Positions 16,301-64,000 of a DNA stretch of 64,000 bases are shown piece by piece. Numbering within the stretch: position 1 is the first letter of the stretch; every line of letters begins with the position of its first letter. Source of the stretch: Raja brachyura (taxonomy: Eukaryota). The DNA lies in the NCBI GenBank assembly GCA_963514005.1, contig OY740799.1, positions 31,372,001 through 31,436,000 on the forward strand, given 5' to 3'. The position numbers and the translations under genes are program-made. A model generated the notes under the pieces. It was not told the DNA's origin. It ran no database searches and saw only the letters and a program-made list of their open reading frames with translations.

Positions 16301-19300
16301 AGAAAGCATCCAAAAGCTCTGTGGGCATTTCAGGAAGCAGGACATGGTGACCTTGGTGCATGGATGATATGGCCGTGGTAGTCATGGATAATAATGTTAG
16401 TGGAGGCAGTCACAGGAAGTCCTACAGCCAGGTGAGCCAGCGGTTCGGGAACGACATGGAGTGGTACTAAAAGGAACCAATGGCATGGCGTGGGTCAGAC
16501 TGACCACTATATCATCAATCAAGTGATGTTCGGATACTGGGCCTTAAATGTGGAAATAAGAAATTGCAAGTCTCCTTATTGTAAAATTGTCTATTCTGAA
16601 ATGTAAGACTTGAAAAGTTGCAAGCATGTTAACAACTAGAGGGCATTGTTTTAAGGTGATAGGGACAATGTTTAAAGGAGATGCGCGAGGCAAGTTTTTT
16701 TACACAGTGTTATGGTTACCTGGAGCATCCTGCCAGGAGTCGTGGTGGCGGAAGATTTGATAATGATGTTTAAGTCGGTTTTAGATAGACACATGGATAT
16801 GCATGGATAGGAGTGTTATAGATAATGTGCTGGGAGATGAGATTAGTTAATGTTTCCATCATATTCGGTGCAGATATTGTGGGCCAAACGGCTTTTTTCC
16901 TGTGCTAAATGTTTCTATGTTCAATGGTGTGATTTGACTTGACAGCACACAGAATAAGCTATTCACTGTACACCTAACAATAATAAACTGAAACCGAACT
17001 AGACCAAGGAAGAGGGAGATTTGTATGGCAGAGCGACAAATAACTAAAAATAAACTCAGCTAATGGGGTCAAGGAAAGAGCATTCACGTCGCGGCCCGTT
17101 TCCATCAATCTTTCCACCAATCTTTTCACCACCATACACAAGAAGCGCAAGAAGCGCAAGACACACACCATTGTGCAGATGAGGAGAAGTGTGTTCATCT
17201 CTGGCTGAACAACTTNNNNNNNNNNNNNNNNNNNNNNNNNNNNNNNNNNNNNNNNNNNNNNNNNNNNNNNNNNNNNNNNNNNNNNNNNNNNNNNNNNNNN
17301 NNNNNNNNNNNNNNNNNNNNNNNNNNNNNNNNNNNNNNNNNNNNNNNNNNNTTTTTGTCCACAGTAACAATTTGAATGTCTAGGCTGAATTAAGAATGTG
17401 AAGAAAAGAAGCAGAAGAAAAGAAAATAAGTCAACAAAGCCCCTTGTGCTTGCATCACCTTTCATTAAAATCACAAATGAGAGATCTCAGTTCATTCATT
17501 CATTCAAATTCATTCTACATTTTCAATTTGCAGTCTTCTTCAGGAATGAATTCCAATAATATACTACTCTCTGGAGAATACATTTTTGTGTTCAGTCCTG
17601 GTTGTGCAATCCCTTAAACTAAGAGTTGGTGAAAACAATTATATATATTGTATCTCTCCACTCTCACACGTCAGGTAGTATGTAGTGGCTGTGAGTGATT
17701 TTCTCTCACGTGACTAATCGCATGTTTTTCAATGACCATTAGCTACAGTCTCAGCCTGTGTATTCCCTTAATTTCCTCTCTCAAGATTATTTCCCCCTAA
17801 AGATGCTTGCCATCTTTCTAACAAATGCATATGTGTGTATATGAAGTTTCAACACAGGTTGGGAATGTTGCTAATCGTCATTGAAAAACATAATAAGTCA
17901 CTTGAGGGGGAAGTGCATTCACAACCACTACATGCTACCTGAGGTGTGACTGTGGGGAGATTCAACATGTGTAATTATATTCAACAAAACTGTGAAAACC
18001 TAGCATGTTTGTTAATAAAATGCGAGAAAATATGCTGGAAAAATTGTTACGATGTTAGAAATGTCCAATCAGAAAAATTGCAAAAACCTATCATGTTTTC
18101 TACTCAAAATGTAGTACTGGAAAAATGAAAAAAAGATGTTTAAAATATCCACTCACCTGTTGTGGAACTAACGGTAGACCCAGTCGTGACAGTTGTCACT
18201 GTTGTTGGTGTTGTTTCTGGTAAAAGAGTACAAATGTGTTTACAACCACATTACACAACTTGAATTACAAGAGTAGAAATTGAATTATGTTAGAATCAGC
18301 ATTTATTAAGGAGCCAGGCCCAAATTCGTTTGACCTTGATCACATATACCCAAGTTGAATTTATCTAGAATGTTTGTTTGGTCAATCACAATGACAGCCC
18401 TACAATCAAATGCAACCTGTTTACTAAGCAGATGATCCATGCGACAATTTTTTTTTTCTGAATTTCTGTATCCAAATCTACAGTGAAATTTATTATATGG
18501 ACAAAAGTGTAATTGGAAAAATACACTTTTGCGAGGTCATGCAATTACTGAGTTTCACAAGATTTAGGATCATAAGTTAGAGCACAGAATGTTGAAACTA
18601 ATCATCCTTGATTTCACTATTGTACACATACTAACATACTTGCAAGATACTATAACTAACCTGATGTGGTACTTGTACTCGTCTCAGTTGTTGTTTCTAG
18701 TGAAAGAAAAGAATGACATACTCAACAAAGGCAACCAAGTTGAATTGACACCCAGTTGAGAAACGTTTAACAAGACTTGACAATAATTGACTAGCTGGCA
18801 CATTTAATTAAAACATTGTACCATATGTATTATTTTCCTAAGCATAAGATAATTGCAGGGCAAATTGTCTTTTGGCAATCCTGTTTATATCAATGGGATG
18901 ATGGTGGAGAGAGTAAAAAACTTCAAATCCCTGGGCGTGCATATTTCCAACGATCTTTCCTGGACCCAGCACACTGATGCAATTATAAAGAAAGCACATC
19001 AGTGCCTCTACTTCCTGAGAAGATTACGGAGATTCGGTATGTCAAAGAGGATTCTATTGAATTTCTACAGGTGCACAGTAGAGAGCAAATTGACTGGTTG
19101 CATCATGGCCTGGTTCAGCAACTTGAACGTCCAGGAGTGGAAAGACTGCAAAAAAGTTGTGAATATTGCCCAGCCCATCACCGGCTCTGACCTCCCCACC
19201 ATCAAAGGGATTTATCGGAGTCTCTGTCTCAAAAAGGCAGCCAACATCATCAGAGACTCACACCATCCTGGCCACACACTCATCTCACCACTGCCAGCGA

Positions 19301-22300
19301 GAAGAAGGTACAGGAGCCTGAGAACTGCAACGACCAGGTTCAGGAACAGATTCTTCCCTACAGCCATCAGGCTATTAGACACTGCAAACTCATAAGCTCT
19401 GATCTACAATAGACTATTATTATTATTATTGCACAGTTGTTGTTTGTTTATTTCAGTATTTGTGTGCATGTGTGTGTCTCATTGATCATATTATTTATTA
19501 TGATCACATATTCCGTTGTGTTGCAGTAAGTAAGACTTTCATTGTTCTATTAAGGACATATGCTAATAAAACACTCTTGACTACTACAGTTCTATGTCTT
19601 TGTAATTCAACAGATGAGTACTTCAGCGTCAACAGGAAAAATATTGCTGTGGACTTGGTTATTGGCAAAGAAAGAAGTGGTCCTTTTCTGAGAAAGATTG
19701 AACCTTAAATATAAATTCTTGTTTACTCAAATTAAAATAATGACATTGCATGAGTGATATGCATCATGTGCAGGCAGCTGAGATTAATTTATCTTTTAAA
19801 ATGTTCAGCAGTAACATTGCGGGCTGAAGAACCTGTTCCTGTGCTATGTGTTCAATATGCTATGTATACTTAATGGATGCCACATATTTATTTAATGTGT
19901 CTCATTTGTTTAGAATCATGTAATTAAATGCCATTTAAATAAAGGATGATAGGCTTAAATAATTTGAATATTATCCTGACACCAACCCTAACTGTGTAAT
20001 ATTGACCCATTGTCTTATTTCAGTGCCACTGTTGACAATCTTTGGCTCTTTATGCACCAATTGCAGATTTCATGGAAGTTCAACAGTGTTTTCCAAAGAC
20101 TGCATGGTCTACTTTGTACAATCTATCTATATCTATGATTATNNNNNNNNNNNNNNNNNNNNNNNNNNNNNNNNNNNNNNNNNNNNNNNNNNNNNNNNNN
20201 NNNNNNNNNNNNNNNNNNNNNNNNNNNNNNNNNNNNNNNNNNNNNNNNNNNNNNNNNNNNNNNNNNNNNNNNNNNNNNNNNNNNNNNNNNNNNNNNNNNN
20301 NNNNNNNNNNNNNNNNNNNNNNNNCGCAAAACAGTACACCACAGTGCTACAATTTTGGCCCACCTTACCATTGTCCTGCGTTGCGAATTAGCCAAGTTTA
20401 GTTCTGATTAATGTTATATTTTACAAGTTATTGACATTTTAAACTTTACAAAAAACACTTTCCCACTTTCCCTGCCCAATTGCCACGTTCGACATCAACG
20501 AAACTCCGCCAAAACGACACACGATTGTGCTACAATTTTTGGCCCACCTTACTCACCATTAGCCTACAATGTGAACTAACAAGTTGCATTAGGATTTATG
20601 TTATATTTTACGTTATGACATTTTAAACATATCTTTTAAAATGCCCTTCTACAGTTTAAAGAAGAGAGCTAATCGTAAACAACACTTATCCATGTTCTCT
20701 CAAGCTGCTGCCTAACTCGCTGATTATGTCAGCACTTTGTGTTATTTTGTGTAATCTAGCATTTGCAGTGCCTTGTTTCTCTTCCAACTCGGTTCATCCA
20801 CAGCTTTATGAAGAGTACTTAACAACTTGGTATAATAGGATTGAGCCAAACATTGGAATCTTGACATGTATATTTTCACCTTTTACATCAATAATGTAAG
20901 CAAAGAAGCAAGAAGAGGTAAGAGCTGCTGTTAGAAATGTTGACCCTTTATTTATAAATATTCCATAACGAAATTTAAATTTAAATTTAAAAATTGCCAA
21001 ATTCGTCTGCTTTGCTCATCATTTTGTTACGATGGGATCCATTAAATTCTGAACTTATCAGTGCATTTTTATACACCTCCACAGTGACATACAGTAAGTC
21101 AAATGGGTCAGCGTGAACAAGAAAAGAAACATTTCAGAAGACAAATAGAGACTACTGCTCTTTCAAAGGTTCACAGTGCTAATGCACAACACATTGCAAC
21201 TCATCACAACTTTACTAACTAGTGTGCATCCTGGGACATAGGCTAATCCATCCATGAGCAAATGCTCTCAGAGTTAGAGTAAAAGTCTGCTGAGCAAAGG
21301 GACGACCCTTTTCTCTAAGAAGGCACTGCTGCTGAAATTCTTATCCATGTCTACTGGATGCTCAATGCTCCTTAATAAAATACTGCTGACAGTCAGAACC
21401 ACATAGACTCTCACATATTTTCAGTGAGAAACTTTAAATTTTAGGAGCAAAGCTATGAACACGGATGAATGGTATAGAGCTTTATTTTAACAGAGCATAC
21501 AGGTACAGAAGGATAAGCTAATATAATTAATAGGTGATGTTACTAACCCGATGTAGTGCTGGTAGTGGTCTCAGTTGTTGGTGTTGTTTCTAGAGAAAGA
21601 AAAAAGGTTATATTTACCCAATTCAGGCGAGATATATGTCAAAATGAATTGGTATGGAGTTATTTTCTTAATTATAAATGCAGTTGGTGGGCATACTAGA
21701 CTACTACATGTATTTCCCTTTGCAGATAGCTGGTCGAGCTGCAGCTGCATAGGCCAGTGACTCTGGTTCCACCTTGACCACGGGTGCTGTCTGCGTGCAC
21801 ATTCTCCTTTTAACAGTGTGGATGGCCTCCAGGTATTTGATAGATGTTATTACTAACCTGTTGTAGTGCTGGTAGTGGTCCCAGTTGTTAATGTAGTTGT
21901 AGTTTCTGGTGAAAGAAAATAATGCTATGGTCAACTAAGGCAGCCAAGAGAAATAGATGTGCAGTATTGAATCTTCAACAGGAACTCCTGAACTGGATCG
22001 TTTGATGAAAACGATTTTGAGTTGACATTGTATCAATGTGAGATGTTTCTGAAAACAATCTGCATTTATGTTTGCACATCCTAAAGTCACATGATCCACA
22101 AACTGCACAAAAGTTGGAGATTATAATTACACTTTTGCTCGTTCCTGCTGCGTTTACGTGGGAATGAGCAGCAATAAACTCATGTTCTTCCACATCTCCT
22201 ATGTTTTTCTAAGATTACATCATAACTAGATATAATTGATTTGAGGCAAACATTGAAATCTTGACATGTATGTTTGCACCATCTATCTCAATAATGTTAG

Positions 22301-25300
22301 AAACGATGCAAGAAGTTAGCCAGTACTGATCTGAGAAGTGTTGACCCATCAGCTTAAGATTTGTCACTGTTGACGGAAAGTGGTTTGACTCACCTGTTGT
22401 GGAACTGGTGATGGACTCAGTGGTGCCAGTTGTCGAATATGTTGTTGGTGTTGTTCCTGGGGAGAGAGTACAAACATGTTTAGGATTTTAATTGCAAGAG
22501 CTGCAGCCACATAGTGCCAGAGACCCGCGTTCTATCCTGGTTTCCCGTACTGTCTGCGCGGAGTTTGTACGTTCTCCCCTTTACCGTGAGAGTTCCCTCC
22601 AGGTGTTTGCTAGATGTTGTTACTAACCTGATGTAGTGCTTGTTGTGGCCCCTGGTGTTGATGTTGGTGTTGTTTCTAGTGAAAGAAAAGAATGCTATCT
22701 TCAACCAAGGCAACCAAGAGGAATTGGTACCAAGTAAAGAAACCTCCAACAGGAATTCATTTTAATACATTGTTTTACTGTGGTTATTTCCTTCATCATA
22801 GAATCATGTGGGAGGGTATGCTTTGCTGTTACTATTCTTCATCTCTGACAATCAGCAGATGGCTATTTTGCTCCATTCTAGAACAATCCTACATTCTTGA
22901 CACTTCGATTGTGGATTTCATGAAGAATTACAAGGCCCTTTTTATTTCAGAAGTGGTTCTCCTATTTTCCGAGTAAGAATTGTTAAATGTTTGTGGCAAC
23001 ACCATGAACAGGCAAGAGGGAAGTATAGAGCTTTGCTTTGACGTTACCTGATGTAGTGCTGGTTGTGGTCTCAGTTGTTGATGTGGTTGGCGTTGTTTCT
23101 GGAGAAGAAAATATTATATTCAATCAGGCAGCTAGGTCAATTGGTACGCATTTTAGAAGCCTTGAACAGAAACACATGAGCTGGCATATTTTATGAATAC
23201 ATTTATTCAGGTCTTATTTTCTTCATTGTGTAACAAAATTAGACTGCCTCATTTTTTTCTCATTGTCAATCAGCAGCTGATCATTTTAGTGGCATTATAA
23301 ATAATTATGTTCTCTTATGTTCCGATGTCAGATTTCATTGAGGCTCAAACGTGTCTCCCGGAAACTGCAGGTGATCAGAAATGCCTATAGAAAAGTGTCA
23401 TGCTCAGTATGTCTTTTAACATTACTGTGGGTAATTAGAACCACAAAGTCTTTCCTTATTCATTGCCATCACAGACAATCATGCGTTCTTAATGCATTAC
23501 ACTTGACATTTCCCTCATCGTAGAAAAAAGTGGGAGGACATAGTCTGCTGCTAAATTCCTTTATCTCTGTCAACTAGCATATTAATGTTTCTCTGCCATC
23601 TCAAACAATCCCGTGCTCTTGACGCATTGATTAAGGATTTACTGGCAATTGAACCACGTCTTCCTGTACGGTCTTCTTTTGCCATTATTACTAACAGTAG
23701 ATTTGCACAATTCATGCCAATAATGTAAACGAAGATGCAAGAATGGAGCAACAGAGCTGATGTTAGAAATGTTGACCCATTGTCCAAAGGTTAGCCAATA
23801 TTGGGGTCAAGGAAAGAGTGTTCATGTTGCAGCCCTGTTTCCACCAATCTTTCCACCACCGAGCACAAGAGGTGACAAGTCAGACACCATTGAATGCAGA
23901 TGGCGAGAAGTGTGTTCTGCTCTTGCTGAACAACTTCTAATCTTATGCTTGGTATACACAGTTACAAATGGAACCACAGACCCCAGAAGTGAAATATTGA
24001 CCCATTGTCTTATTTCAGTGCCACTGATAAACAATTATTTGCTCTTAATGCACCAATTGCGGATTGTACGGAAGTTCATCCGTGTTTTCCAAAAACTGTA
24101 TGTTCCAATTTGTACCGTTATTTTTTTTAAAATATTTTCATTAGAAGCAATGCATATTGCCAATGATATAACAGTTTTTCCATTACACATTTATCTTGTT
24201 TCAAAAGTTATACAAATATTATGGAATGATTTATATAAGCTTCTATTTTTTTTAGAAAGTAAAGAAAGTAAAGAGGTAAAAGAATAGGTGTGTAATCAAT
24301 GAAGATTGTGATTAAATAATATTGATTATGATTATATATTTTTAAATTTAAAAAAAAAAAAAAATTAAAAATTAAAAAAACAGTAAGAATAATAAAAATA
24401 AAAAATAATACAAACACACAATTATTATGTAAAAAAAAATTGAAGTATACATCATTTGCTCTTAATGCACCAATTGCGGATTGTACGGAAGATCATCGGT
24501 GTTTTCCAAAAACTGTACGTTCCACTTTGTACCGTTATTTTTTTAAAACATATTTTCATTAGAAGCAATGCATATTGCCAATGATATAACAGTTTTTCCA
24601 TTACACATTTATCTTGTTTCAAAAGTTATACAAATATTAAGGAATGATTTATATAAGCTTCTATTTTTTTTTAGAAAGTAAAGAAAGTAAAGAGGTAAAA
24701 GAATAGGTGTGGAATCAATGAAGATTGTGATTAAATAATATTGATTATGATTATATATTAAAAAAAATTAATAAAAATAAATAAAAAATAAAAAAAACAA
24801 TAAGAATAATAAAAATAAAAAATAACAAGCAAACAATTATTATGGAAAAAAATTGAAGTATACATCTTAAGAATGATTGAAACAATTTGACATAACAATA
24901 TCTATAGAGACGTGTATACAAATCTCAGAATAGATCTTTTCATTTAATCCTACCACCGGGCATTTATTGAGTTACAATGCTGAGCTCAGCTACCCCTTCA
25001 TATAGTCAGTGAATGGAGACCATATTTGTTCAAAAAGTTCATATTTGTCCATTAGGACAAACCTACTTTGTACCGTTATTACTAATGGTGTGTGATGTGC
25101 TTGCACAACATGAGCATTTGTGTTCCACTTGTCCAAATGTGTCAGAACCTGAAATTGCATAAAATTGGACACAAAGTGCTGAACAAGGAACTGCAGATGC
25201 TGGATTACACAAAGTGACCCAAAGTGCTGGAAAAAATCAGCATGTCAGGCAGAATCACTGGAAAACATGGATTGGTGACATTTCGTGTCAGGACCCTTCT

Positions 25301-43300: not shown

Positions 43301-46300
43301 CAAGAAACTCATGTTCTTCCACATTTCCTATGTTTTTTAAAGATTACATTATAACTTGATATAATTGATTTGAGGCAAACATTGAAATCTTGACATGTGT
43401 GTTTCCACCATCTATCTCAATAATGTAAACAAAGATGCAAGACGTAAACCGGAGACCTGGTCTAAGGGCTTAGAAGTAAGCCGGAGACCCATTGGATTAC
43501 ACTTTGTCGCTGTTTACAGGAAGTGGTTTGACTCACCTGTCGTGGAACTGGTGGTGGACTCAGTTGTGCCAGTTGTCGAAGATGTTGTTGGGGTTGTTCC
43601 TGGAGAGAGAGTACAAACATGTTTATGAAATTAATTGCAAGAGGTGCAACCACGTAGCGCCGGAGACCCTAGTTCTATCCTGGTTTCTCGTTCCGTCTGT
43701 GTGGAGATTGCACTTTCTCACTTTTACCGTGTAGGTTCCCTTCAGGTGTTTGTTAGATGTTGTTACTCACCTGATGTAGTGCTTGTAGTGGTCCCTGGTG
43801 TTGATGTTGGTGTTGTTTCTAGTGAAAGAAAAGAATGCTATCTTCAACCAAGGCAACCAAGAGGAATTGGTACCAAGTAAAGAAACCTCCAAAAGGAATT
43901 CATCAGCAGGCACATGTTAATAAATTGTTTTACTGTGGTTATTTCCTTCATCATAGAATCATGTGGGAGGGTATGCTTTGCTGTTACATTTCTTCATCTC
44001 TGACAATCAGCAGATGGCTATTTTGCTCCATTCTAGAACAATCCTACATTCTTGACACTTCGATTGTGGATTTCATGAAGAATTACAAGGCCCTTTTTAT
44101 TTCAGAAGTGGTTCTCCTATTTTCCGAGTGAGAATTGTTAAATGTTTGTGGCAACACCATGAACAGGCAAGAGAGAAGTATAGAGCTTTGCTTTGACGTT
44201 ACCTGATGTAGTGCTGGTTGTGGTCTCAGTTGATGATGTGGTTGGCGTTGTTTCTGGAGAAGAAAATATTATATTCAATCAAGGCAGCTAGGTCAATTGG
44301 TACGCATTTTAGAAGCCTTGTACAGAAACACATGAGCTGGCGCGATTTATGAATACATTTATTTATGTCTTATTTTCGTCATCGTATAACAAAATTGGAC
44401 TGCTTCATTTTTTTCTCAGTGTCAATCAGCAGCCGATCATTTTAGTGCAATTATAAATAATTAAGTTCTCTTGTGTTCCAATGTCAGATTTCATTGAGGC
44501 TCAAACGTGTCTTCCAGAAACTGCAGGTGATCAGAAATGCCTATAGAAAAGTGTCATGCTCAGTACGTCTTTTAACATTACTGTGGGTAATTAGTACCAC
44601 AAAGTCTTTCCTTATTCATTGCCATCACAGACAATCATGCGTTCTTAATGCATTACACTTGACATTTCCCTCATCGTAGAAAAAAATGGGAGGACCTAGT
44701 CTGCTGCTAAATTTCTTTATCTCTGTCAACTAGCATATTAATATTTCTCTGCCATCTCAAACAGTCAAGTGCTCTTGACACATCGATTGTGGATTTACTG
44801 GCAATTGAACCAAGACATCCTGTATGGTCTTCTTTTGCCAATATTACTAACAGTAGAGTTGTACAATTCATGCCAATAATGGTAACGAAGATGCAAGAAT
44901 GGAGCAACAGAGCTGATGTATGAAATGTTGACCCATTGTCCAAAGATTAGCCAATGTTGGGGTCAAGGAAAGAGTGTTCATGTCGCGGCCCTGTTTCCAC
45001 CAATCTTTCCACCGCCGAGCACAAGAAGTGACAAGTGAGACACCATTGAATGCAGATGCCGAGAAGTGTGTTCTGCTCTTGATGAACAACTTCTAATCTT
45101 ATGCTTGGTATACACAGTTACAAATGGAACCACAGACCCCAGCAGTGAAATATTGACCCATTGTCTTATTTCAGTGCCACTGCTAAACAATCTTTTGCTC
45201 TTGATGCACCAATTGCGGATTGTACGGAAGTTCATCCGTGTTTTCCAAAAACTGTATGTTCTACTTTATACCGTTATTACTAATGGTGTGTGATGTGCTT
45301 GCACATAATGAGCATTTGTGTTCCACTTGTCCAAATGGGCCAGGCCTGAAATTGCATAAAATGTGCTGATCTAATCATGCTTTAGCTTGTTATTGCTGAA
45401 TATCAGAAGAAAATGAGCAGCAGAAGCCAACAACTCAGTTGGACACAAAGCGCTGATTAAGGAACTGCAGATGCTAGATTACACAAAATGACCCAAAGTG
45501 CTGGAAAAAATCAGCATGTCAGGCAGAATCACTGGAAAATGTGGATTGGTGACATTTTGTGTCAGGACCCTTCTGCAGATTGAAGAAGAGAGCCGAATGT
45601 AAACTACACTTATTCATGTTCTCCCGAGATGCTGCCTGACTCGCTGATTGGGTCAACATTTTGCGTCATTTTGTGTAATCCAGCATTTGCGGTCCATTGT
45701 TTCTGTCCCAACTCGGTTCCGCCACAATTCCTAAGCTTTTTGAAGATTACTTTATAACTTGGTATAATTGGATTGAGCCAAACATTGAAATCTTGACATG
45801 TACATTTTCACCTTGTACATCAATACTGTAAGCAAAGAAGCAAGAAGAGGTAAGAGCTGCTGTTAGAAATGTTGACCCTGTTGTCTTCCGATTTGTCACT
45901 GTTGACAGTGAATGGTTTGACTCACCTGTCGTGGTGGACTCAGTTGTGCCAGTTGTTGAATATGTTGTTGGTGTTGTACCTGGTGAGAGAATAAAATGTG
46001 TTTACAACTTGAATTGTAAAGGGACTGTCCCACTAGCGCGCGATTAGACGCGACAAGCGCGACCTACCGTGGTCGCTTTAGTCGCCCGGCCTCGCGTGAC
46101 CCTGTCCCACTGCGATCGCCGGAGTCTCGTCGAGTTGTGTGTAGCTGGTGTCGACATCGCGCGTAGTGTCCAAAAACCGACACTGCTTAAAAAATTACGC
46201 GCGGCAAAATCCTGTCGCGCAGAACGTGATTAACGTGATGACGTTTTGACGTTGTGCGTCTTCAGCGTGGCGTTGCGTGATGACGTCACTGCCCGACGTC

Positions 46301-49300
46301 GTGCAACGCGCATGCTCATGCGCATCGTCACGTGATGAAAAATAACGTCCTTCCTTCGGACGTCGCGCGTGTAATCGCGCGCTAGTGGGACAGGCCCTTC
46401 ACTCGCACCGGGATCGCCTGACCCCCACGCGACCCCCGCGTCCGAATTTGTCGCGCTTGTCGCGTCTAATCGCGCGCTAGTGGGACAGGCCCTTAAGAGT
46501 TCATATTCAGCTTCTGTATGACTCAGCACATTTTCATGAAAGTAAACTGAATTTTATAAATATTCCATGACGAAATTTAAATTTAAATGTAGAAAATTGC
46601 CAAATTCTGCTTTGTTTGCTTTGTTCATCATTTTGTTAGCATGGGATCCATTAAATTCGGAACTTTTCAGTATATTTTTATCCACCTCCACAGTGATATA
46701 CAGTACATCAAATAGACTGGCGTGAACAAGAAAATATACATTTCTGTAGACAAATATTGACTCCTGCTCTTTCAAATGTTTACAGTGCTATTGCACAACA
46801 CATTGCAACTCATCACAATTTTACTAACTACTATGTATCCTGGGACATAGACTAACCAATCCATGAGCAAATGCTCTCAGATGTAAAGTCAGCTGGGCAA
46901 AGGGAAGAGTCTATTCCATGAAAAGGCACTGCTGCTGAAATTCTTAGCCATGTCTATTGAATGCTCAATGCTCCTTAAAAAAGTACCGCTGACCGTCAGA
47001 ACCACATAAACTCTCTCATATATTCATTGCGCAATTTAAAATTTTTGAAGCAAAACTATGAACATGGAAGAAGTATAGTGCTATATATTAACAGAGCATA
47101 CAGGTACAGAAGGATAAGATAATATGATTAATAGGTGATGTTACTAACCTGATGTAGTGCGAGTAGTGGTCTCAGTTGTTGGTGTTGTTTCTAAAGAAAG
47201 AAAAAAGGTTATATTTAACCAATACAGGCGAGATGTATGTCAAAATGAATTGATATGCAGTTGAGAAACCTATGATAGGAATTCATGTGCTGACACATTT
47301 CATTAAAATGTTGTACCAAGTGTTTTTTTCTTAATCGTAAATGCAGTTGGTGGGCATGTTAGACTACTACAAGTCTTTCTCTTTGTAGATTGCTGGTAGT
47401 GCTGCAGCCGCATAGACCAGAGATTCTGGTTCCACCTTGACCTCGGGTGCTGTCTGCGTGCACGTTTTCCGTTTTACAGCATGGATGGCCTCCAGGTATT
47501 TGATAGATGTTGTTACTAACCTGTTGTAGTGCTGGTAGTGGTTCCAATTGTTAATGTAGTTGTTGTTTCTGGCGAAAGAAAATAATGCTATCGTCAACTA
47601 AGGCAGCTAAGAGAAATAGGTATGCAGTATTGAATCTTCAACAGGAATTCCTGAACTGGATCATTTCATGAAAACGATTTTGAGTTGACATTGTATCAGT
47701 GTGAGATGTTTCTGAAAACAATCTGCATTTATGTTCGCATATCCAAAAGTGACATGATCCACAAGCTGCTCAAAATTTCGAGGTCATAATTGCACTTTTG
47801 CTCAGTCCTGCTGAGTATACGTGGAAATGAGAAGCAAGAAACTCATGTTCTTCCACATTTCCTATGTTTTTCAAAGATTACATTATAACTTGATATAATT
47901 GATTTGAGGCAAACATTGAAATCTTGACATGTGTGTTTGCACCATCTATCTCAATAATGTAAACAAAGATGCAAGACGTAAACCGGAGACCTGGTCTAAG
48001 GGCTTAGAAGTAAGCCGGAGACCCATTGGATTACACTTTGTCGCTGTTTACAGGAAGTGGTTTGACTCACCTGTCGTGGAACTGGTGGTGGACTCAGTTG
48101 TGCCAGTTGTCGAAGATGTTGTTGGGGTTGTTCCTGGAGAGAGAGTACAAACATGTTTATGAAATTAATTGCAAGAGGTGCAACCACGTAGCGCCGGAGA
48201 CCCTAGTTCTATCCTGGTTTCTCGTTCCGTCTGTGTGGAGATTGCACTTTCTCACTTTTACCGTGTAGGTTCCCTTCAGGTGTTTGTTAGATGTTGTTAC
48301 TCACCTGATGTAGTGCTTGTAGTGGTCCCTGGTGTTGATGTTGGTGTTGTTTCTAGTGAAAGAAAAGAATGCTATCTTCAACCAAGGCAACCAAGAGGAA
48401 TTGGTACCAAGTAAAGAAACCTCCAAAAGGAATTCATCAGCAGGCACATGTTAATAAATTGTTTTACTGTGGTTATTTCCTTCATCATAGAATCATGTGG
48501 GAGGGTATGCTTTGCTGTTACATTTCTTCATCTCTGACAATCAGCAGATGGCTATTTTGCTCCATTCTAGAACAATCCTACATTCTTGACACTTCGATTG
48601 TGGATTTCATGAAGAATTACAAGGCCCTTTTTATTTCAGAAGTGGTTCTCCTATTTTCCGAGTGAGAATTGTTAAATGTTTGTGGCAACACCATGAACAG
48701 GCAAGAGAGAAGTATAGAGCTTTGCTTTGACGTTACCTGATGTAGTGCTGGTTGTGGTCTCAGTTGATGATGTGGTTGGCGTTGTTTCTGGAGAAGAAAA
48801 TATTATATTCAATCAAGGCAGCTAGGTCAATTGGTACGCATTTTAGAAGCCTTGTACAGAAACACATGAGCTGGCGCGATTTATGAATACATTTATTTAT
48901 GTCTTATTTTCGTCATCGTATAACAAAATTGGACTGCTTCATTTTTTTCTCAGTGTCAATCAGCAGCCGATCATTTTAGTGCAATTATAAATAATTAAAT
49001 TATCTTGTGTGCCAATGTCAGATTTCATTGAGGCTCAAACGTGTCTTCCAGAAACTGCAGGTGATCAGAAATGCCTATAGAAAAGTGTCATGCTCAGTAC
49101 GTCTTTTAACATTACTGTGGGTAATTAGTACCACAAAGTCTTTCCTTATTCATTGCCATCACAGACAATCATGCGTTCTTAATGCATTACACTTGACATT
49201 TCCCTCATCGTAGAAAAAAATGGGAGGACCTAGTCTGCTGCTAAATTTCTTTATCTCTGTCAACTAGCATATTAATATTTCTCTGCCATCTCAAACAGTC

Positions 49301-58300: not shown

Positions 58301-61300
58301 TCAACATTTTGCGTCATTTTGTGTAATCCAGCATTTGCGGTCCATTGTTTCTGTCCCAACTCGGTTCCGCCACAATTCCTAAGCTTTTTGAAGATTACTT
58401 TATAACTTGGTATAATTGGATTGAGCCAAACATTGAAATCTTGACATGTACATTTTCACCTTGTACATCAATACTGTAAGCAAAGAAGCAAGAAGAGGTA
58501 AGAGCTGCTGTTAGAAATGTTGACCCTGTTGTCTTCCGATTTGTCACTGTTTACAGTGAATGGTTTGACTCACCTGTCGTGGTGGACTCAGTTGTGCCAG
58601 TTGTTGAATATGTTGTTGGTGTTGTACCTGGTGAGAGAATAAAATGTGTTTACAACTTGAATTGTAAGAGTTCATATTCAGCTTCTGTATGACTCAGCAC
58701 ATTTTCATGAAAGTAAGCTGAATTTTATAAATATTCCATGACGAAATTTAAATTTAAATGTAGAAAATTGCCAAATTCTGCTTTGTTTGCTTTGTTCATC
58801 ATTTTGTTAGCATGGGATCCATTAAATTCGGAACTTTTCAGTATATTTTTATCCACCTCCACAGTGATATAAAGTACATCAAATAGACTGGCGTGAACAA
58901 GAAAATATACATTTCTGTAGACAAATATTGACTCCTGCTCTTTCAAATGTTCACAGTGCTATTGCACAACACATTGCAGCTCATCACAATTTTACTAACT
59001 ACTATGTATCCTGGGACATAGACTAACCAATCCATGAGCAAATGCTCTCAGATGTAAAGTCAGCTGGGCAAAGGGAAGAGTATATTCCATGAAAAGGCAC
59101 TGCTGCTGAAATTCTTAGCCATGTCTATTGAATGCTCAATGCTCCTTAAAAAAGTACCGCTGACCGTCAGAACCACATAAACTCTCTCATATATTCAATG
59201 CGCAATTTAAAATTTTTGAAGCAAAACTATGAACATGGAAGAAGTATAGTGCTATATATTAACAGAGCGTACAGGTACAGAAGGATAAGATAATATGATT
59301 AATAGGTGATGTTACTAACCTGATGTAGTGCGAGTAGTGGTCTCAGTTGTTGGTGTTGTTTCTAAAGAAAGAAAAATGGTCATATTTAACCAATGCAGGC
59401 GAGATGCATGTCAAAATGAATTGATATGCAGTTGAGAAACCTATGATAGGAATTCATGTGCTGACACATTTCATTAAAATGTTTTACCAAGTGTTTTTTT
59501 CTTAATCGTAAATGCAGTTGGTGGGCATGTTAGACTACTACAAGTCTTTCCCTTTGTAAATCGTTGGTAGGGCTGCAGCCGCATAGACCAGAGATTCTGG
59601 TTCCACCTTGACCTCGGGTGCTGTCTGCGTGCACGTTCTCCGTTTTACAGCATGGATGGCCTCCAGGTATTTGATAGATGTTGTTACTAACCTGTTGTAG
59701 TGCTGGTAGTGGTTCCAGTTGTTAATGTAGTTGTTGTTTCTGGCGAAAGAAAATAATGCTATCGTCAACTAAGGCAGCTAAGAGAAATAGGTATGCAGTA
59801 TTGAATCTTCAACAGGAATTCCTGAACTGGATCATTTCATGAAAACGATTTTGAGTTGACATTGTATCAGTGTGAGATGTTTCTGAAAACAATCTGCATT
59901 TATGTTCGCATATCCAAAAGTGACATGATCCACAAGCTGCTCAAAATTTCGAGGTCATAATTGCACTTTTGCTCAGTCCTGCTGAGTATACGTGGAAATG
60001 AGAAGCAAGAAACTCATGTTCTTCCACATTTCCTATGTTTTTCAAAGATTACATTATAACTTGATATAATTGATTTGAGGCAAACATTGAAATCTTGACA
60101 TGTGTGTTTGCACCATCTATCTCAATAATGTAAACAAAGATGCAAGACGTAAACCGGAGACCTGGTCTAAGGGCTTAGAAGTAAGCCGGAGACCCATTGG
60201 ATTACACTTTGTCGCTGTTTACAGGAAGTGGTTTGACTCACCTGTCGTGGAACTGGTGGTGGACTCAGTTGTGCCAGTTGTCGAAGATGTTGTTGGGGTT
60301 GTTCCTGGAGAGAGAGTACAAACATGTTTATGAAATTAATTGCAAGAGGTGCAACCACGTAGCGCCGGAGACCCTAGTTCTATCCTGGTTTCTCGTTCCG
60401 TCTGTGTGGAGATTGCACTTTCTCACTTTTACCGTGTAGGTTCCCTTCAGGTGTTTGTTAGATGTTGTTACTCACCTGATGTAGTGCTTGTAGTGGTCCC
60501 TGGTGTTGATGTTGGTGTTGTTTCTAGTGAAAGAAAAGAATGCTATCTTCAACCAAGGCAACCAAGAGGAATTGGTACCAAGTAAAGAAACCTCCAAAAG
60601 GAATTCATCAGCAGGCACATGTTAATAAATTGTTTTACTGTGGTTATTTCCTTCATCATAGAATCATGTGGGAGGGTATGCTTTGCTGTTACATTTCTTC
60701 ATCTCTGACAATCAGCAGATGGCTATTTTGCTCCATTCTAGAACAATCCTACATTCTTGACACTTCGATTGTGGATTTCATGAAGAATTACAAGGCCCTT
60801 TTTATTTCAGAAGTGGTTCTCCTATTTTCCGAGTGAGAATTGTTAAATGTTTGTGGCAACACCATGAACAGGCAAGAGAGAAGTATAGAGCTTTGCTTTG
60901 ACGTTACCTGATGTAGTGCTGGTTGTGGTCTCAGTTGATGATGTGGTTGGCGTTGTTTCTGGAGAAGAAAATATTATATTCAATCAAGGCAGCTAGGTCA
61001 ATTGGTACGCATTTTAGAAGCCTTGTACAGAAACACATGAGCTGGCGCGATTTATGAATACATTTATTTATGTCTTATTTTCGTCATCGTATAACAAAAT
61101 TGGACTGCTTCATTTTTTTCTCAGTGTCAATCAGCAGCCGATCATTTTAGTGCAATTATAAATAATTAAATTATCTTGTGTGCCAATGTCAGATTTCATT
61201 GAGGCTCAAACGTGTCTTCCAGAAACTGCAGGTGATCAGAAATGCCTATAGAAAAGTGTCATGCTCAGTACGTCTTTTAACATTACTGTGGGTAATTAGT

Positions 61301-63796
61301 ACCACAAAGTCTTTCCTTATTCATTGCCATCACAGACAATCATGCGTTCTTAATGCATTACACTTGACATTTCCCTCATCGTAGAAAAAAATGGGAGGAC
61401 CTAGTCTGCTGCTAAATTTCTTTATCTCTGTCAACTAGCATATTAATATTTCTCTGCCATCTCAAACAGTCAAGTGCTCTTGACACATCGATTGTGGATT
61501 TACTGGCAATTGAACCAAGACTTCCTGTATGGTCCTCTTTTGCCAATATTACTAACAGTAGAGTTGTACAATTCATGCCAATAATGGTAACGAAGATGCA
61601 AGAATGGAGCAACAGAGCTGATGTATAAAATGTTGACCCATTGTCCAAAGGTTAGCCAATGTTGGGGTCAAGGAAAGAGTGTTCATGTCGCGGCCCTGTT
61701 CCCACCAATCTTTCCACCGCCGAGCACAAGAAGTGACAAGTCAGACACCATTGAATGCAGATGCCGAGAAGTGTGTTCTGCTCTTGCTGAACAACTTCTA
61801 ATCTTATGCTTGGTATACACAGTTACAAATGGAACCACAGATCCCAGCAGTGAAATATTGACCCATTGTCTTATTTCAGTGCCACTGCTAAACAATCTTT
61901 TGCTCTTAATGCACCAATTGCGGATTGTACGGAAGTTCATCCGTGTTTTCCAAAAACTGTATGTTCTACTTTATACCGTTATTACTAATGGTGTGTGATG
62001 TGCTTGCACATAATGAGCATTTGTGTTCCACTTGTCCAAATGGGCCAGGCCTGAAATTGCATAAAATGTGCTGATCTAATCATGCTTTAGCTTGTTATTG
62101 CTGAATATCAGAAGAAAATGAGCAGCAGAAGCCAACAACTCAGTTGGACACAAAGCGCTGATTAAGGAACTGCAGATGCTAGATTACACAAAATGACCCA
62201 AAGTGCTGGAAAAAATCAGCATGTCAGGCAGAATCACTGGAAAATGTGGATTGGTGACATTTTGTGTCAGGACCCTTCTGCAGATTGAAGAAGAGAGCCG
62301 AATGTAAACTACACTTATTCATGTTCTCCCGAGATGCTGCCTGACTCGCTGATTGGGTCAACATTTTGCGTCATTTTGTGTAATCCAGCATTTGCGGTCC
62401 ATTGTTTCTGTCCCAACTCGGTTCCGCCACAATTCCTAAGCTTTTTGAAGATTACTTTATAACTTGGTATAATTGGATTGAGCCAAACATTGAAATCTTG
62501 ACATGTACATTTTCACCTTGTACATCAATACTGTAAGCAAAGAAGCAAGAAGAGGTAAGAGCTGCTGTTAGAAATGTTGACCCTGTTGTCTTCCGATTTG
62601 TCACTGTTTACAGTGAATGGTTTGACTCACCTGTCGTGGTGGACTCAGTTGTGCCAGTTGTTGAATATGTTGTTGGTGTTGTACCTGGTGAGAGAATAAA
62701 ATGTGTTTACAACTTGAATTGTAAGAGTTCATATTCAGCTTCTGTATGACTCAGCACATTTTCATGAAAGTAAGCTGAATTTTATAAATATTCCATGACG
62801 AAATTTAAATTTAAATGTAGAAAATTGCCAAATTCTGCTTTGTTTGCTTTGTTCATCATTTTGTTAGCATGGGATCCATTAAATTCGGAACTTTTCAGTA
62901 TATTTTTATCCACCTCCACAGTGATATAAAGTACATCAAATAGACTGGCGTGAACAAGAAAATATACATTTCTGTAGACAAATATTGACTCCTGCTCTTT
63001 CAAATGTTCACAGTGCTATTGCACAACACATTGCAGCTCATCACAATTTTACTAACTACTATGTATCCTGGGACATAGACTAACCAATCCATGAGCAAAT
63101 GCTCTCAGATGTAAAGTCAGCTGGGCAAAGGGAAGAGTATATTCCATGAAAAGGCACTGCTGCTGAAATTCTTAGCCATGTCTATTGAATGCTCAATGCT
63201 CCTTAAAAAAGTACCGCTGACCGTCAGAACCACATAAACTCTCTCATATATTCAATGCGCAATTTAAAATTTTTGAAGCAAAACTATGAACATGGAAGAA
63301 GTATAGTGCTATATATTAACAGAGCGTACAGGTACAGAAGGATAAGATAATATGATTAATAGGTGATGTTACTAACCTGATGTAGTGCGAGTAGTGGTCT
63401 CAGTTGTTGGTGTTGTTTCTAAAGAAAGAAAAATGGTCATATTTAACCAATGCAGGCGAGATGCATGTCAAAATGAATTGATATGCAGTTGAGAAACCTA
63501 TGATAGGAATTCATGTGCTGACACATTTCATTAAAATGTTTTACCAAGTGTTTTTTTCTTAATCGTAAATGCAGTTGGTGGGCATGTTAGACTACTACAA
63601 GTCTTTCCCTTTGTAAATCGTTGGTAGGGCTGCAGCCGCATAGACCAGAGATTCTGGTTCCACCTTGACCTCGGGTGCTGTCTGCGTGCACGTTCTCCGT
63701 TTTACAGCATGGATGGCCTCCAGGTATTTGATAGATGTTGTTACTAACCTGTTGTAGTGCTGGTAGTGGTTCCAGTTGTTAATGTAGTTGTTGTTT
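1255..63796 (-). CDS. Large gel-forming mucin (MUC2/MUC5-like), partial multi-exon gene: PTS micro-exon array - CysD - VWD(D4) - C8 - TIL-like - VWC-like; both ends outside the window
   Basis: 74 manually delineated GT-AG exons join in one frame with matching phases. The domain order matches the C-terminal half of vertebrate gel-forming mucins. The orthologue cannot be assigned by eye. Confidence 0.93.
2850..4110 (-). mobile_element. Degenerate CR1-type LINE fragment, interrupted by a MITE
   Basis: Translation SLTYVVGKLQEMILKKHL...SQPSFVCGKLCFKNLIEVLEE...DRAIDIGY resembles CR1 reverse transcriptase; the LINE appears to resume after 3937; boundaries approximate. Confidence 0.75.
3391..3936. 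mobile_element. Older PIF/Harbinger-type MITE
   Basis: Ends AGGGCCTGTGACAC...GTGGGCCAGGTCCT are imperfect TIRs related to those at 15641 and 46020; flanked by TTA/TTC; internal 21-bp repeat ggcgacaacctacgtcatcct at ~3660-3720. Confidence 0.7.
4720..4751 (-). CDS. Mucin small exon (RCTDYSGNFKN)
   Basis: 32 nt, phase 1-0; acceptor tctctctttcctacag, donor GTGAGT; bridges the phases of the neighbouring exons exactly. Confidence 0.8.
4868..4974 (-). CDS. Mucin exon, TIL-like C-terminal half (NFMRTGEVFSEPTEGCFCPEGLMLSEDATQCVPSCS)
   Basis: 107 nt, phase 2-1; EGCFCPEG...CV motif; donor GTAAGT. Confidence 0.9.
5110..5179 (-). CDS. Mucin exon, TIL-like N-terminal half (SYTCPYGFIYRPCATNNHNYCTD)
   Basis: 70 nt, phase 1-2; CP-x-G-x-x-Y-x-x-C motif; acceptor ttcttttcag, donor GTAAGT. 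Confidence 0.88.
5530..6812 (-). mobile_element. Penelope-like retroelement fragment (RT remnant plus terminal repeat)
   Basis: LVLILNNFSFDSSYFLQIQGVAMGMRIGPSYAYLFVG...FINFTTNFHPALKYT is a Penelope-type RT; frameshifted; terminal repeat with a CTGAAGA...GAAA motif at ~5630-5665. Confidence 0.85.
6820..7468 (+). mobile_element. 5'-truncated CR1-type LINE
   Basis: SRTRGHSLRTRGKPFRTETRKNFFSQRV is a CR1 ORF2 C-terminus, followed by a 3'UTR. Confidence 0.85.
7675..8217 (+). mobile_element. 5'-truncated CR1-type LINE
   Basis: LSYRERLSKLGLYSLERRRLRGDLIEVFK...RGNFFTQRVVAVWNELP; ends in an 8-bp tandem tail (gttatatg)n. Confidence 0.9.
8793..8968 (-). CDS. Mucin exon, C8 domain (SFQSCRSLNSLSHYFEACRDDNCWNATFEECSSLEAAALRCNALGFCVDWRQSTNGSC)
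   Basis: 176 nt, phase 2-1; F-x-x-C...Y-x-x-AC-x-x-D-x-C...CSSLE...C...CVDWR is C8-like; donor GTGAGT. Confidence 0.92.
10142..10355 (-). CDS. Mucin exon, end of VWD and linker (GSISNQQTDDCKRKNG...AHEW...PPTPPPPCEYEKPICDALFG)
   Basis: 214 nt, phase 1-2; N-x-x-x-DDC...W motif; GT-AG boundaries. Confidence 0.88.
11555..11738 (-). CDS. Mucin exon, VWD middle (VKINGESVSLPFYAEGFYI...KDKIQGQC)
   Basis: 184 nt, phase 0-1; V-x-ING-x-x-V-x-LP and G-x-CG VWD motifs. Confidence 0.9.
12140..12680 (-). mobile_element. Degenerate CR1-type LINE 3' fragment
   Basis: YRKDVEALKRFTKMLPRLEGISHNERLE resembles the CR1 ORF2 C-terminus. Confidence 0.75.
12795..13024 (-). CDS. Mucin exon, VWD(D4) start (SVCYVWGRKHYRTFEGVFYKFFEDCSYVLVEEI...SPRQND)
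   Basis: 230 nt, phase 1-0; C-x-x-WG-x-x-HY-x-TF-x-G...C-x-YVL VWD signature; donor GTAAGT. Confidence 0.92.
13150..13321 (-). CDS. Mucin exon, Cys-rich segment before D4 (CNETWIENCATYTC...KPQCYSGLKPTRVKTEDGCCSEWDCQ)
   Basis: 172 nt, phase 0-1; NETW...C...GCC-x-x-W-x-C as in MUC2/MUC5 just before D4. Confidence 0.9.
14136..14435 (-). mobile_element. tRNA-derived V-SINE (HE1-like)
   Basis: Minus strand: A box GTGGCACAGCGG, B box GGTTCAACCC, core gttctccccgtgacctgcg...ttcctcccacactccaaagac; the tail reads (tttag)n on the plus strand. Confidence 0.85.
14585..14910 (+). mobile_element. Rex1/Babar-like LINE 3' remnant
   Basis: ggcagaagatac...accaccagactcagg..cagcttcttcccc resembles the 3' end of the element at 18.9-19.6 kb. 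Confidence 0.55.
15029..15402 (-). CDS. Mucin exon, CysD (WxxW) domain plus short Thr-rich linker
   Basis: 374 nt, phase 1-0; HCSGVWSSWYNDNTP...IQCQ...VCDKDIGLIC...CNDYKIRVCC is a CysD pattern; the phase-1 acceptor fits the PTS micro-exons upstream. Confidence 0.93.
15641..16218. mobile_element. PIF/Harbinger-type MITE, 578 bp
   Basis: TIRs AGGGCCTGTCCCACCAG / CTGGTGGGACAAGCCCT; TAA duplication at 15638-15640 and 16219-16221; CpG-rich; no transposase. Confidence 0.88.
16600..16925 (+). mobile_element. Degenerate CR1-type LINE 3' end
   Basis: actagagggcat...aagttttttacacag...ttagatagacacatggat resembles the CR1 3' ends at 7.2 and 8.0 kb. Confidence 0.65.
17216..17351. other. Assembly gap (N run)
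   Basis: 136 N. Confidence 0.99.
18157..18216 (-). CDS. PTS micro-exon (ETTPTTVTTVTTGSTVSSTT)
   Basis: 60 nt, phase 1-1; acceptor ttttaccag, donor GTGAGT. Confidence 0.85.
18661..18696 (-). CDS. PTS micro-exon (ETTTETSTSTTS)
   Basis: 36 nt, phase 1-1; acceptor ttttctttcactag, donor GTTAGT. Confidence 0.8.
18870..19582 (+). mobile_element. 5'-truncated Rex1/Babar-type LINE
   Basis: VERVKNFKSLGVHISNDLSWTQHTDAIIKKAHQCLYFLRRLRRFG...FYRCTVES...RFRNRFFPTAIRLL; 3'UTR with AATAAA. Confidence 0.85.
20143..20324. other. Assembly gap (N run)
   Basis: 182 N. Confidence 0.99.
21548..23098 (-). CDS. Diverged edge unit (unit 0) of the PTS array, five micro-exons
   Basis: Exons 21548-21589 (B), 21858-21905 (C), 22394-22456 (D), 22628-22675 (E), 23048-23098 (F); all phase 1-1 and GT-AG; exon A is missing. 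Confidence 0.85.
24122..25062 (-). mobile_element. 5'-truncated L1-type LINE with target-site duplication, partly duplicated
   Basis: VLMDKYELFEQIWSPFTDYMKG* resembles the end of fish L1 ORF2; long AT-rich 3'UTR; poly-T on plus; c(c/t)actttgtaccgttatt at 24522-24539 and 25063-25080. Confidence 0.7.
25182..25427. repeat. Fold-back element made of two inverted Penelope-like terminal repeats, one copy per array unit
   Basis: aacaaggaactgcagatgctggattacacaaa ... tttgtgtaatccagcatttgcggtccattgtt; the arms resemble 5536-5660. Confidence 0.75.
25652..25705 (-). CDS. PTS micro-exon A, unit 1 (GTTPTTYSTTGTTESTTT)
   Basis: 54 nt; acceptor ttctctcaccag, donor GTGAGT. Confidence 0.88.
26398..26439 (-). 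CDS. PTS micro-exon B, unit 1 (ETTPTTETTTRTTS)
   Basis: 42 nt; acceptor tttctttctttag, donor GTTAGT. Confidence 0.85.
26770..26817 (-). CDS. PTS micro-exon C, unit 1 (ETTTTLTTGTTTSTTT)
   Basis: 48 nt; acceptor ttttctttcgccag, donor GTTAGT. Confidence 0.85.
27320..27382 (-). CDS. PTS micro-exon D, unit 1 (GTTPTTSSTTGTTESTTSSTT)
   Basis: 63 nt; acceptor ctctctctccag, donor GTGAGT. Confidence 0.88.
27554..27601 (-). CDS. PTS micro-exon E, unit 1 (ETTPTSTPGTTTSTTS)
   Basis: 48 nt; acceptor ttcttttctttcactag, donor GTGAGT. Confidence 0.88.
27986..28036 (-). CDS. PTS micro-exon F, unit 1 (ETTPTTSSTETTTSTTS)
   Basis: 51 nt; acceptor tttcttctccag, donor GTAACG. Confidence 0.86.
29698..32082 (-). 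CDS. PTS micro-exons A-F, unit 2
   Basis: 29698-29751, 30444-30485, 30816-30863, 31366-31428, 31600-31647, 32032-32082. Confidence 0.85.
33755..36139 (-). CDS. PTS micro-exons A-F, unit 3
   Basis: 33755-33808, 34501-34542, 34873-34920, 35423-35485, 35657-35704, 36089-36139. Confidence 0.85.
37812..40196 (-). CDS. PTS micro-exons A-F, unit 4
   Basis: 37812-37865, 38558-38599, 38930-38977, 39480-39542, 39714-39761, 40146-40196. Confidence 0.85.
41869..44253 (-). CDS. PTS micro-exons A-F, unit 5
   Basis: 41869-41922, 42615-42656, 42987-43034, 43537-43599, 43771-43818, 44203-44253. Confidence 0.85.
45926..48787 (-). CDS. PTS micro-exons A-F, unit 6 (carries the MITE)
   Basis: 45926-45979, 47149-47190, 47521-47568, 48071-48133, 48305-48352, 48737-48787. 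Confidence 0.85.
46020..46493. mobile_element. Young PIF/Harbinger-type MITE, 474 bp, in unit 6 only
   Basis: ~44-bp TIR AGGG(A/C)CTGTCCCACTAGCGCGCGATTAGACGCGACAAGCGCGAC; TAA at 46017-46019 and 46494-46496; the empty site gaattgTAAgagtt is seen in sister units; 474+3 equals the 477-bp extra spacing. Confidence 0.95.
50460..52844 (-). CDS. PTS micro-exons A-F, unit 7
   Basis: 50460-50513, 51206-51247, 51578-51625, 52128-52190, 52362-52409, 52794-52844. Confidence 0.83.
54517..56901 (-). CDS. PTS micro-exons A-F, unit 8
   Basis: 54517-54570, 55263-55304, 55635-55682, 56185-56247, 56419-56466, 56851-56901. Confidence 0.83.
58574..60958 (-). CDS. PTS micro-exons A-F, unit 9
   Basis: 58574-58627, 59320-59361, 59692-59739, 60242-60304, 60476-60523, 60908-60958. 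Confidence 0.83.
62631..63796 (-). CDS. PTS micro-exons A-C, unit 10 (cut by the window edge)
   Basis: 62631-62684, 63377-63418, 63749-63796. Confidence 0.83.
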
Positions 63797-64000
63797 CTGG
63801 CGAAAGAAAATAATGCTATGGTCAACTAAGGCAGCTAAGAGAAATAGGTATGCAGTATTGAATCTTCAACAGGAATTCCTGAACTGGATCATTTCATGAA
63901 AACGATTTTGAGTTGACATTGTATCAGTGTGAGATGTTTCTGAAAACAATCTGCATTTATGTTCGCATATCCAAAAGTGACATGATCCACAAGCTGCTCA

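Follow-up and report, generated by a model that had tools for sequence, protein, structure and literature searches.

A probable Muc19-lineage mucin gene of the skate Raja brachyura with micro-exon PTS arrays and two CysD-D4-C8-TIL blocks

A 64,000-nt stretch of the Raja brachyura genome (contig OY740799.1, here G000:C19:31,372,001-31,436,000; hereafter the window) carries on its minus strand part of a gene which, with a probability that we put at roughly 0.7, encodes a Muc19-lineage gel-forming mucin of ~4,700 aa that is spliced in a relative. Its likely domain order is D1-D2-D'-D3-PTS(A)-CysD-D4-C8-TIL-PTS(B)-CysD-D4-C8-TIL-C-terminus-CK, where PTS denotes regions in which proline, threonine and serine abound and CK the cystine knot. 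All PTS exons and the whole D4 block are of phase 1-1, and the gene appears to evolve by in-frame gain and loss of blocks. It is predicted to encode a five-VWD mucin in which a D4 block splits the PTS in two. Positions beyond the window are given as extended coordinates (C19 position minus 31,372,000), and feature coordinates are collected in Table 1.

Micro-exons of the PTS arrays

A strict exon rule, which demanded a pyrimidine tract with YAG, a length of 30-70 nt, >=65% Thr/Ser and a terminal exonic G before a GT.A donor and left the phase free, recovered exactly 64 Thr/Ser-rich micro-exons on the minus strand between window positions 18,157 and 63,796, each a multiple of three and of phase 1-1 (64/64). 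The same rule found none on the plus strand of the window and none in 30/30 Markov shuffles. In transcript order the cassette consists of F51, E48, D63, C48, B42 and A54 nt and encodes 102 aa (63 T, 16 S, 6 P; 77% T+S, 5.9% P), which exceeds the thresholds of >40% Thr+Ser and >5% Pro used for PTS domains (PMC4948705). These counts, lengths, order and composition agree with the initial annotation, as does the window total of 1,082 aa, which it had put at ~1,080. Its 4,057-bp six-exon unit, the repeat period detected across the window, holds for 6/9 F-to-F periods; it fails for the remaining three (4,534, 4,046 and 4,938 bp) and at the terminal cassette, which lacks exon A and is followed by the extra exons G (36 nt) and H (60 nt) and then by the CysD exon, to which the array is linked in frame as had been proposed. 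The exon A of the terminal cassette was removed whole by a short deletion near window position 20,950, and the frame was kept. The frame open around each micro-exon spans 21-90 codons only, and the open reading frame track therefore misses the array, a point already made from the sequence; a single read-through PTS reading frame is ruled out by the same frames.

Beyond the window, array B continues to extended coordinate 90,860 and comprises 103 micro-exons, 16 full cassettes and 1,748 aa. Together with the 30 intact micro-exons of array A, the gene contains 133 micro-exons of 36-75 nt, several with donors off the consensus (GTTAGT, GTAACG). Four array-B units are identical across 4,057 bp, so the exact cassette count of 16 is uncertain. 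A 477-bp inverted-repeat element is present in units 1-5 and 11, and its distribution together with the four identical units appears to be the pattern of recent unequal exchange and conversion. Change in cassette copy number had been suggested from the sequence, and the way in which unit sub-lineages are intermingled speaks for such change by unequal exchange. Internal matches within the cassette reach 69-79%, and the cassette itself is probably a mosaic of earlier exon duplications.

The exon status of these short sequences is upheld by splice-site invariance, frame conservation, selective constraint and spliced joints. Across 44 non-redundant copies (31 from array A, one cassette and the terminal seven exons), GT was present in 44/44 and AG in 43/44 with variable flanking intron columns, and lengths were divisible by three in 43/44 copies over eight in-frame length classes. 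The ratio of non-synonymous to synonymous substitution rates (dN/dS) was 0.45 (p=0.0008) in the non-redundant copies with two decayed ones left out; one of these (n=2) lacks its AG, and the other, which breaks the frame, lacks a G at the donor. In 15 homogenised units, 6/306 exon columns vary against 96/2,761 intron columns, a comparison that proves nothing taken alone.

Four of the seven listed sequencing runs were compared with window positions 4,600-24,300. Run X1 (organism A, one study), whose RNA nature is inferred from its spliced joints, contains a single contig joined at six predicted introns (CT..AC) at D4-TIL exon borders, as well as an A->F joint (23101->22408) and an A->G joint (18698->22408). 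Depth in this run falls to 0 at 24/25 listed cassette-intron positions versus 13,800 in exon D, and the 151 unaligned letters of its CysD contig presumably equal 1+A+G+H. The joint table of this run is dominated by repeats and holds 5,032 joints beyond those listed.

The phase design would permit micro-exon skipping, and regulated or stochastic skipping, in its extended form with a splice from the upstream TIL to the C-terminal exons that yields a short one-D4 isoform, could be a main source of length diversity. This is compatible with the gene structure proposed here, and we consider it possible although doubtful. Phases are compatible throughout the 133 exons and the two blocks, the exons are small and some donors weak in consensus as described above, and X1 joins an array-B-type A to G where this assembly has five exons between them. 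Splicing polymorphism has been described for the Xenopus skin mucin FIM-C.1, which is highly polymorphic through alternative splicing (PMC7177656), and for chicken MUC2, whose PTS repeats extend across exons 32-45 with one in-frame splice variant (PMC3549977). However, the A->G joint is equally explained by a relative in which the terminal A is retained, as it is in array A here, the duplication history by itself accounts for the phase symmetry, and no other clearly skipped micro-exon junction occurs among the X1 joints listed. The main source of length change is likely to be genomic copy number. Contig depth gave a cassette copy number of ~10-11x in run X2, 8-9x in X4 and 6-9x in X5; variant units split into other contigs, and these values are therefore not used as evidence of variation.

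Gene structure and the duplicated CysD-D4-C8-TIL block

In extended coordinates, the gene runs from D1-D3 (185-146 kb) through array A, module A, array B and module B to five C-terminal exons that end in the CK. The D1-D2-D'-D3 exons lie in order in tblastn searches with three full-length homologues, and 18/18 tested cores are open. Three of the C-terminal exons, the last being the cystine knot, reach ~2,600 bases left of the window, and by homology the last two match the CK end of P0002 (PF00007) at 41-47%.

A genome search revealed a 95% copy of the CysD exon 95 kb upstream, which belongs to a second complete block, module A. Both modules have the same eight exon lengths and differ at 24 amino acids in 508; CysD (PF13330, WxxW), VWD and C8 score above the Pfam cut-off in both, and TIL scores below it on a single exon in both. 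Module A contains no stop and no indel, keeps 45/45 Cys and has 16/16 splice dinucleotides intact; dN/dS between the modules is 0.38 (p=0.003) with introns 5.0% diverged. Kilobase-sized insertions lie between the aligned blocks of module A introns and none in its exons. A chimeric intron of 131 bp separates exon F from the phase-1 end of the last module A exon.

DNA runs X4 and X5, from two other studies, contain contigs that fit the module A difference pattern at four places and the module B pattern elsewhere, and the duplication is therefore not an assembly artefact. That the array or the duplication represents such an artefact, or a non-coding satellite, is hardly credible: the identity of four units over 4,057 bp would fit it, whereas the modules differ by 5% and by insertions, independent DNA runs carry both modules, cassette contigs are several times deeper than single-copy contigs (a weak measure), and the region is spliced in X1. 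A split into two transcription units, of which the upstream one would stop after TIL' (primes mark the module A side) and lack a cystine knot while the 3' half is left as an orphan, is very improbable as well. No CK exons follow module A, as that arrangement would have it, yet there is a single set of D1-D3 exons and a single CK, a strong TIL' donor and a strong F acceptor stand 131 bp apart in frame, and the 3' half, which is spliced in X1, lacks a separate N-terminus.

A more serious alternative, although in our judgement an unlikely one, is a real micro-exon gene in which the upstream D4 block is a silent passenger that is skipped (H'->F is also in frame) and looks intact through recent origin and conversion. 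Several observations lean this way and at the same time weigh against the five-VWD gene structure that we prefer. Polarised amino-acid changes fall more often on module A (11 vs 5, with 8 unresolved and distant outgroups), the pairwise dN/dS of 0.38 is not far under the ~0.55-0.6 that we estimate for one neutral branch, and divergence between the modules is patchy, with flanks at 0.5-16%, which suggests gene conversion that may preserve the intact look of a dead copy. No TIL'->F or H'->CysD' joint assignable to module A was found among the joints listed for the RNA-like run X1. This is a single run from another organism (14 differing letters in ~805) whose RNA status was guessed by the tool, its depth is 0 at window position 21,549, the edge of exon B, and its micro-exon depth, counted at 82% likeness, takes in exons of the sister gene that lies directly downstream. 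Comparison with that sister gene gives a non-significant dN/dS of 0.80, so function of the sister gene is not shown. Against a silent passenger, a neutral module A branch should have gathered ~9.9 lesions (stops, indels, Cys or splice hits) and 0 were seen (P(0) ~5e-5), insertions of kilobase size entered module A introns and no exon, the module A CysD exon retains all Cys and, being 5% diverged, has not been converted, and module A sequence is retained in two other samples. We favour a gene that likely encodes both D4 blocks in frame.

Table 1. Features of the mucin gene; window positions unless marked as extended coordinates.
Feature	Position	Strand	Evidence
PTS array B, window part: C, B, A + 9 full F-E-D-C-B-A cassettes + terminal F-E-D-C-B + G + H (64 exons)	18157..63796	-	exon scans; A->F and A->G splices in run X1
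Example cassette: F 60958-60908, E 60523-60476, D 60304-60242, C 59739-59692, B 59361-59320, A 58627-58574	58574..60958	-	period 4,057 bp
477-bp element with 45-bp terminal inverted repeats in B-A intron, marks 6/16 cassettes	46020..46496	.	sequence comparison
Window edge, gene runs on upstream: 39 further array-B micro-exons to extended 90,860	63797..64000	-	exon scan
CysD exon of module B, phase 1 in / 0 out	15029..15402	-	Pfam Mucin2_WxxW E 5e-15; spliced X1 contig 4
Module B, seven exons for linker, VWD4, C8, TIL: 13321-13150, 13024-12795, 11738-11555, 10355-10142, 8968-8793, 5179-5110, 4974-4868; last ends phase 1	4868..13321	-	introns spliced CT..AC in X1
First C-terminal exons: 4751-4720 (phase 1 in), 1365-1255	1255..4751	-	homology
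Chimeric junction intron, 131 bp, ATAAAAT microhomology (7 nt)	extended 90,861-90,991	-	sequence comparison
Module A, second CysD-VWD4-C8-TIL block: 8 exons, 1,527 nt, phase 1-1 as a whole	extended 90,992-110,218	-	sequence comparison, Pfam
PTS array A: 30 intact micro-exons + 2 decayed	extended 113,513-144,872	-	exon scan
D1-D2-D'-D3 exons	extended 146,086-184,644	-	tblastn with three full-length homologues
D3 motif GKYLGFC	L009:8257-8412	-	alignment, Cys numbering matched to PMC7599080

Family assignment, sister gene and mucin cluster

The initial annotation had set the array against the very large PTS exons of MUC2, MUC5AC and MUC5B and had proposed a mucin phylogeny as a check. That contrast was misplaced: a D4-region tree groups the gene with Muc19/spiggin, and the genome's own MUC2-type gene, on C18 (44,663,926-44,680,368), has a single CysD+PTS open frame of 5,481 aa and groups with MUC2. 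The tree was built from 20 rows picked from a 52-row set, itself a subset of homologue matches and genomic paralogues, with row names taken from automatic annotations. Chondrichthyan rows and teleost Muc19/spiggin form one clade in it (support 99/98; 92 in a 52-row quick tree), and identity as MUC2 or MUC5 is rejected in clade tests (p-AU 7.8e-7 and 8.0e-7, respectively). The mammalian form of MUC19 has no D4 and is for that reason not represented in the tree. D4 is absent from Muc6 and mammalian Muc19, and CysD is listed as a Muc2/Muc5 trait (PMC4948705). With two D4 and two CysD, this gene departs from the mammalian MUC19 architecture, which the sister gene does display; D4 absence defines the mammalian form alone (PMC4948705), and we therefore file the gene in the Muc19 lineage and not as mammalian-type MUC19. 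It is a Muc19-lineage paralogue, not MUC2/5. The proteins closest to this genome's paralogues come from skates, which bears out the cartilaginous fish host named earlier from the letters alone.

The D3 motif GK[YF]LGFC is common to this gene and teleost Muc19/spiggin, and MUC2 has GGDCECFC there; the equivalents of Cys1088 and Cys1090 are thus gone and that of Cys1130 is kept. A Cys1088Ala mutant still dimerised (PMC7599080), and the N-terminal polymer links of this mucin may differ.

Searches with VWD and CysD located at least nine mucin genes and one lone VWD match at C19:30.6-33.3 Mb. LRRK2, represented by 13 exon matches to the ARM_LRRK2 family, lies within this cluster at C19:32.855-32.892 Mb, 1.3 Mb from this gene; a COR-A family search missed it there, its matches falling on C36 and C3. 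AP2A2 flanks MUC6 in the AP2A2-MUC6-MUC2-MUC5 cluster. Such a placement does not apply to this gene on C19; an alpha-adaptin match (C18:43.68 Mb) instead lies beside a second VWD cluster at C18:44.5-45.65 Mb. Not all cluster genes use micro-exons: this gene and the sister gene do, as do those at 30.9-31.0 and 33.2 Mb and, in part, at 30.65-30.7 Mb, and others have large PTS frames (965, 1,536 and 443 aa) or a 1.1-kb CysD+PTS exon in repeated form. When the genome was searched with an exon specific to D4, seven matches came up: this gene accounted for two, and five further genes of the cluster for one apiece.

The sister gene (G000:C19:31,026,600-31,240,000) is ~97% identical to this gene in exon cores and 7.5% diverged over the N-terminal blocks, and 22/22 of its tested exon cores are open. 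It contains 230 micro-exons (~3,660 aa) of the same two families, 230/230 in phase 1-1, arranged around a 5,102-bp cassette of eight exons. The CysD-D4-C8-TIL block is missing from it. A TIL remnant with a donor and no acceptor persists near C19:31,038,053, which shows loss of the D4 block and not ancestral absence; the deletion fused an E-type acceptor pyrimidine tract to the middle of the TIL exon, and both flanking exons are of phase 1. D4 copy number among the tandem paralogues is thus 0, 1 or 2. The duplication here and the sister deletion are not exact reciprocal-crossover products, as their breakpoints differ by ~70 nt on the TIL side and ~500 nt on the PTS side. Synonymous divergence of N-terminal exons between the two genes (3.9%) is lower than the block-wide 7.5%, hinting at exon-biased conversion between them.

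Further repeat-built genes were seen in the course of the searches. At C19:31.905-31.925 Mb lie ~19 tandem copies of the 1.1-kb unit with one CysD+PTS exon each, and beyond LRRK2 (C19:33,188,000-33,275,000) a mucin has a 6.48-kb cassette of a 348-nt phase 1-1 CysD exon and seven micro-exons, several of which have tandem NAGNAG acceptors, and a second cassette of 5.27 kb next to it. Dozens of tandem CysD-like matches in two exon-sized halves at C33:18.56-18.73 Mb probably mark another mucin-like gene, and VWD units every ~16-17 kb at C14:27.81-27.95 Mb probably belong to an FCGBP- or zonadhesin-like gene.

Proposed evolution and comparison with known mucins

Two ancestral micro-exon types, a short one (F/E/C/B/G) and a long one (D/A/H), would have been multiplied by tandem duplication, after which a ~20-kb duplication joined at microhomology would have copied cassette and D4 in frame, the copies diverging by 5% since. 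Unequal crossing-over and conversion would then have raised one cassette to 16 copies and homogenised them. With a single phase common to every part, any gain or loss at intronic breakpoints would stay in frame, and PTS length and D4 number could evolve fast. In-frame gain or loss of same-phase exons is classical symmetric-exon shuffling, and the units gained or lost here under one phase are single exons (the lost A), cassettes, CysD exons and the D4 block. We give even odds to a broader reading, in which the phase-1 backbone forms a modular kit with CysD and CysD-D4-C8-TIL as plug-in units; a five-VWD mucin with D4 in the middle of the bottle-brush (and possibly shorter one-D4 forms) would then stand against a D4-less sister that replays the D4 loss of MUC6 and mammalian MUC19.

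In the usual gel-forming mucin the PTS occupies one giant exon, and no more than one D4 assembly is present, close to the C-terminus. A single skate genome combines two designs, with a giant-exon MUC2 alongside micro-exon Muc19 paralogues that have 0, 1 or 2 D4 blocks, and the sister deletion offers a concrete route to D4 loss as in MUC6 and mammalian MUC19. The nearly matched genes (~97% in exons) are a means of testing the role of D4, and if the modular kit exists they would form a natural 0/1/2-copy series for its action in mucus gels. Database names such as 'mucin-2-like' or 'mucin-6-like' are attached to shark and ray proteins that belong to the Muc19 clade, a point of importance for proteomic work on shark skin mucus, where such names have been used (PMC10707392).

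In the open literature, outside of which most subscription papers lie, we found no report of chondrichthyan mucin exon structure or of a duplicated D4 block; supplements or the web database of PMC4948705, which describes three Muc19 paralogues in Callorhinchus, may show their architectures. Modular PTS peptides of other sharks suggest micro-exons there too. The micro-exon PTS principle is already known; as far as our searches reach, what is new is its scale (133 + 230 exons), the block shuffling, the assignment to Muc19, the enlarged cluster and the 0/1/2 D4 series. Regions with one repeat per exon exist in FIM-B.1 and mammalian Muc19, and FIM-B.1 is reportedly polymorphic in splicing. That cassette-exon PTS has precedents, as first annotated, thus stands, and skipping likewise is no new idea: chicken Muc13 has multiple near-identical PTS exons of one repeat each, with alternative splicing proposed as length control (PMC1552070). 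Unlike this gene, with its gel-forming type, six-exon cassette and 133 exons, Muc13 is a SEA mucin of the transmembrane class and has 12 or more single-exon repeats. Xenopus MucXS/Otogl, a secreted skin mucin with three VWD (written D2-D'-D3) and no typical CysD (PMC5789918), resembles the skate gene in its multiexonic central domain; a duplicated D4 is not among the features given for it in the available text of PMC5789918 and PMC7177656.

Among 88 proteins, a small and length-limited sample, 71 have a D4-like stretch and one has two; P0079, with seven stretches, proved unrelated. The anchovy 'mucin-2-like' XP_063074227.1 (P0084, a predicted model) shares with the skate gene the Muc19-type D3 motif, five VWDs and two D4-like stretches, but has an extra VWD directly after D3, then a VWA before the PTS, and no CysD-D4-C8-TIL block between PTS arrays. 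With MUC2, MUC5AC and MUC5B the skate gene shares the order D1-D2-D'-D3, PTS, CysD, D4, CK and the Cys1130 equivalent; it differs from them in locus and clade and in lacking a giant exon and the Cys1088/Cys1090 equivalents. Its VWD4 begins WGRKH, without the GDPH motif.

The human MUC19 repeat sits in a ~12-kb exon (PMC10557577, PMC13345508), whereas the skate PTS lies in exons of 36-75 nt and the skate cluster has at least nine genes. Mammalian MUC19 has neither CysD nor a D4 block, and spiggin B has one D4 block; the skate gene has CysD and two D4 blocks. The likeness to Muc19/spiggin comprises the LRRK2 locus, as in the human LRRK2-MUC19 neighbourhood (PMC10557577), one clade in the D4 tree, the D3 motif GK[YF]LGFC, a fourth VWD as in some spiggins, and tandem expansion, as described for stickleback spiggin (PMC2180178, PMC4989455).

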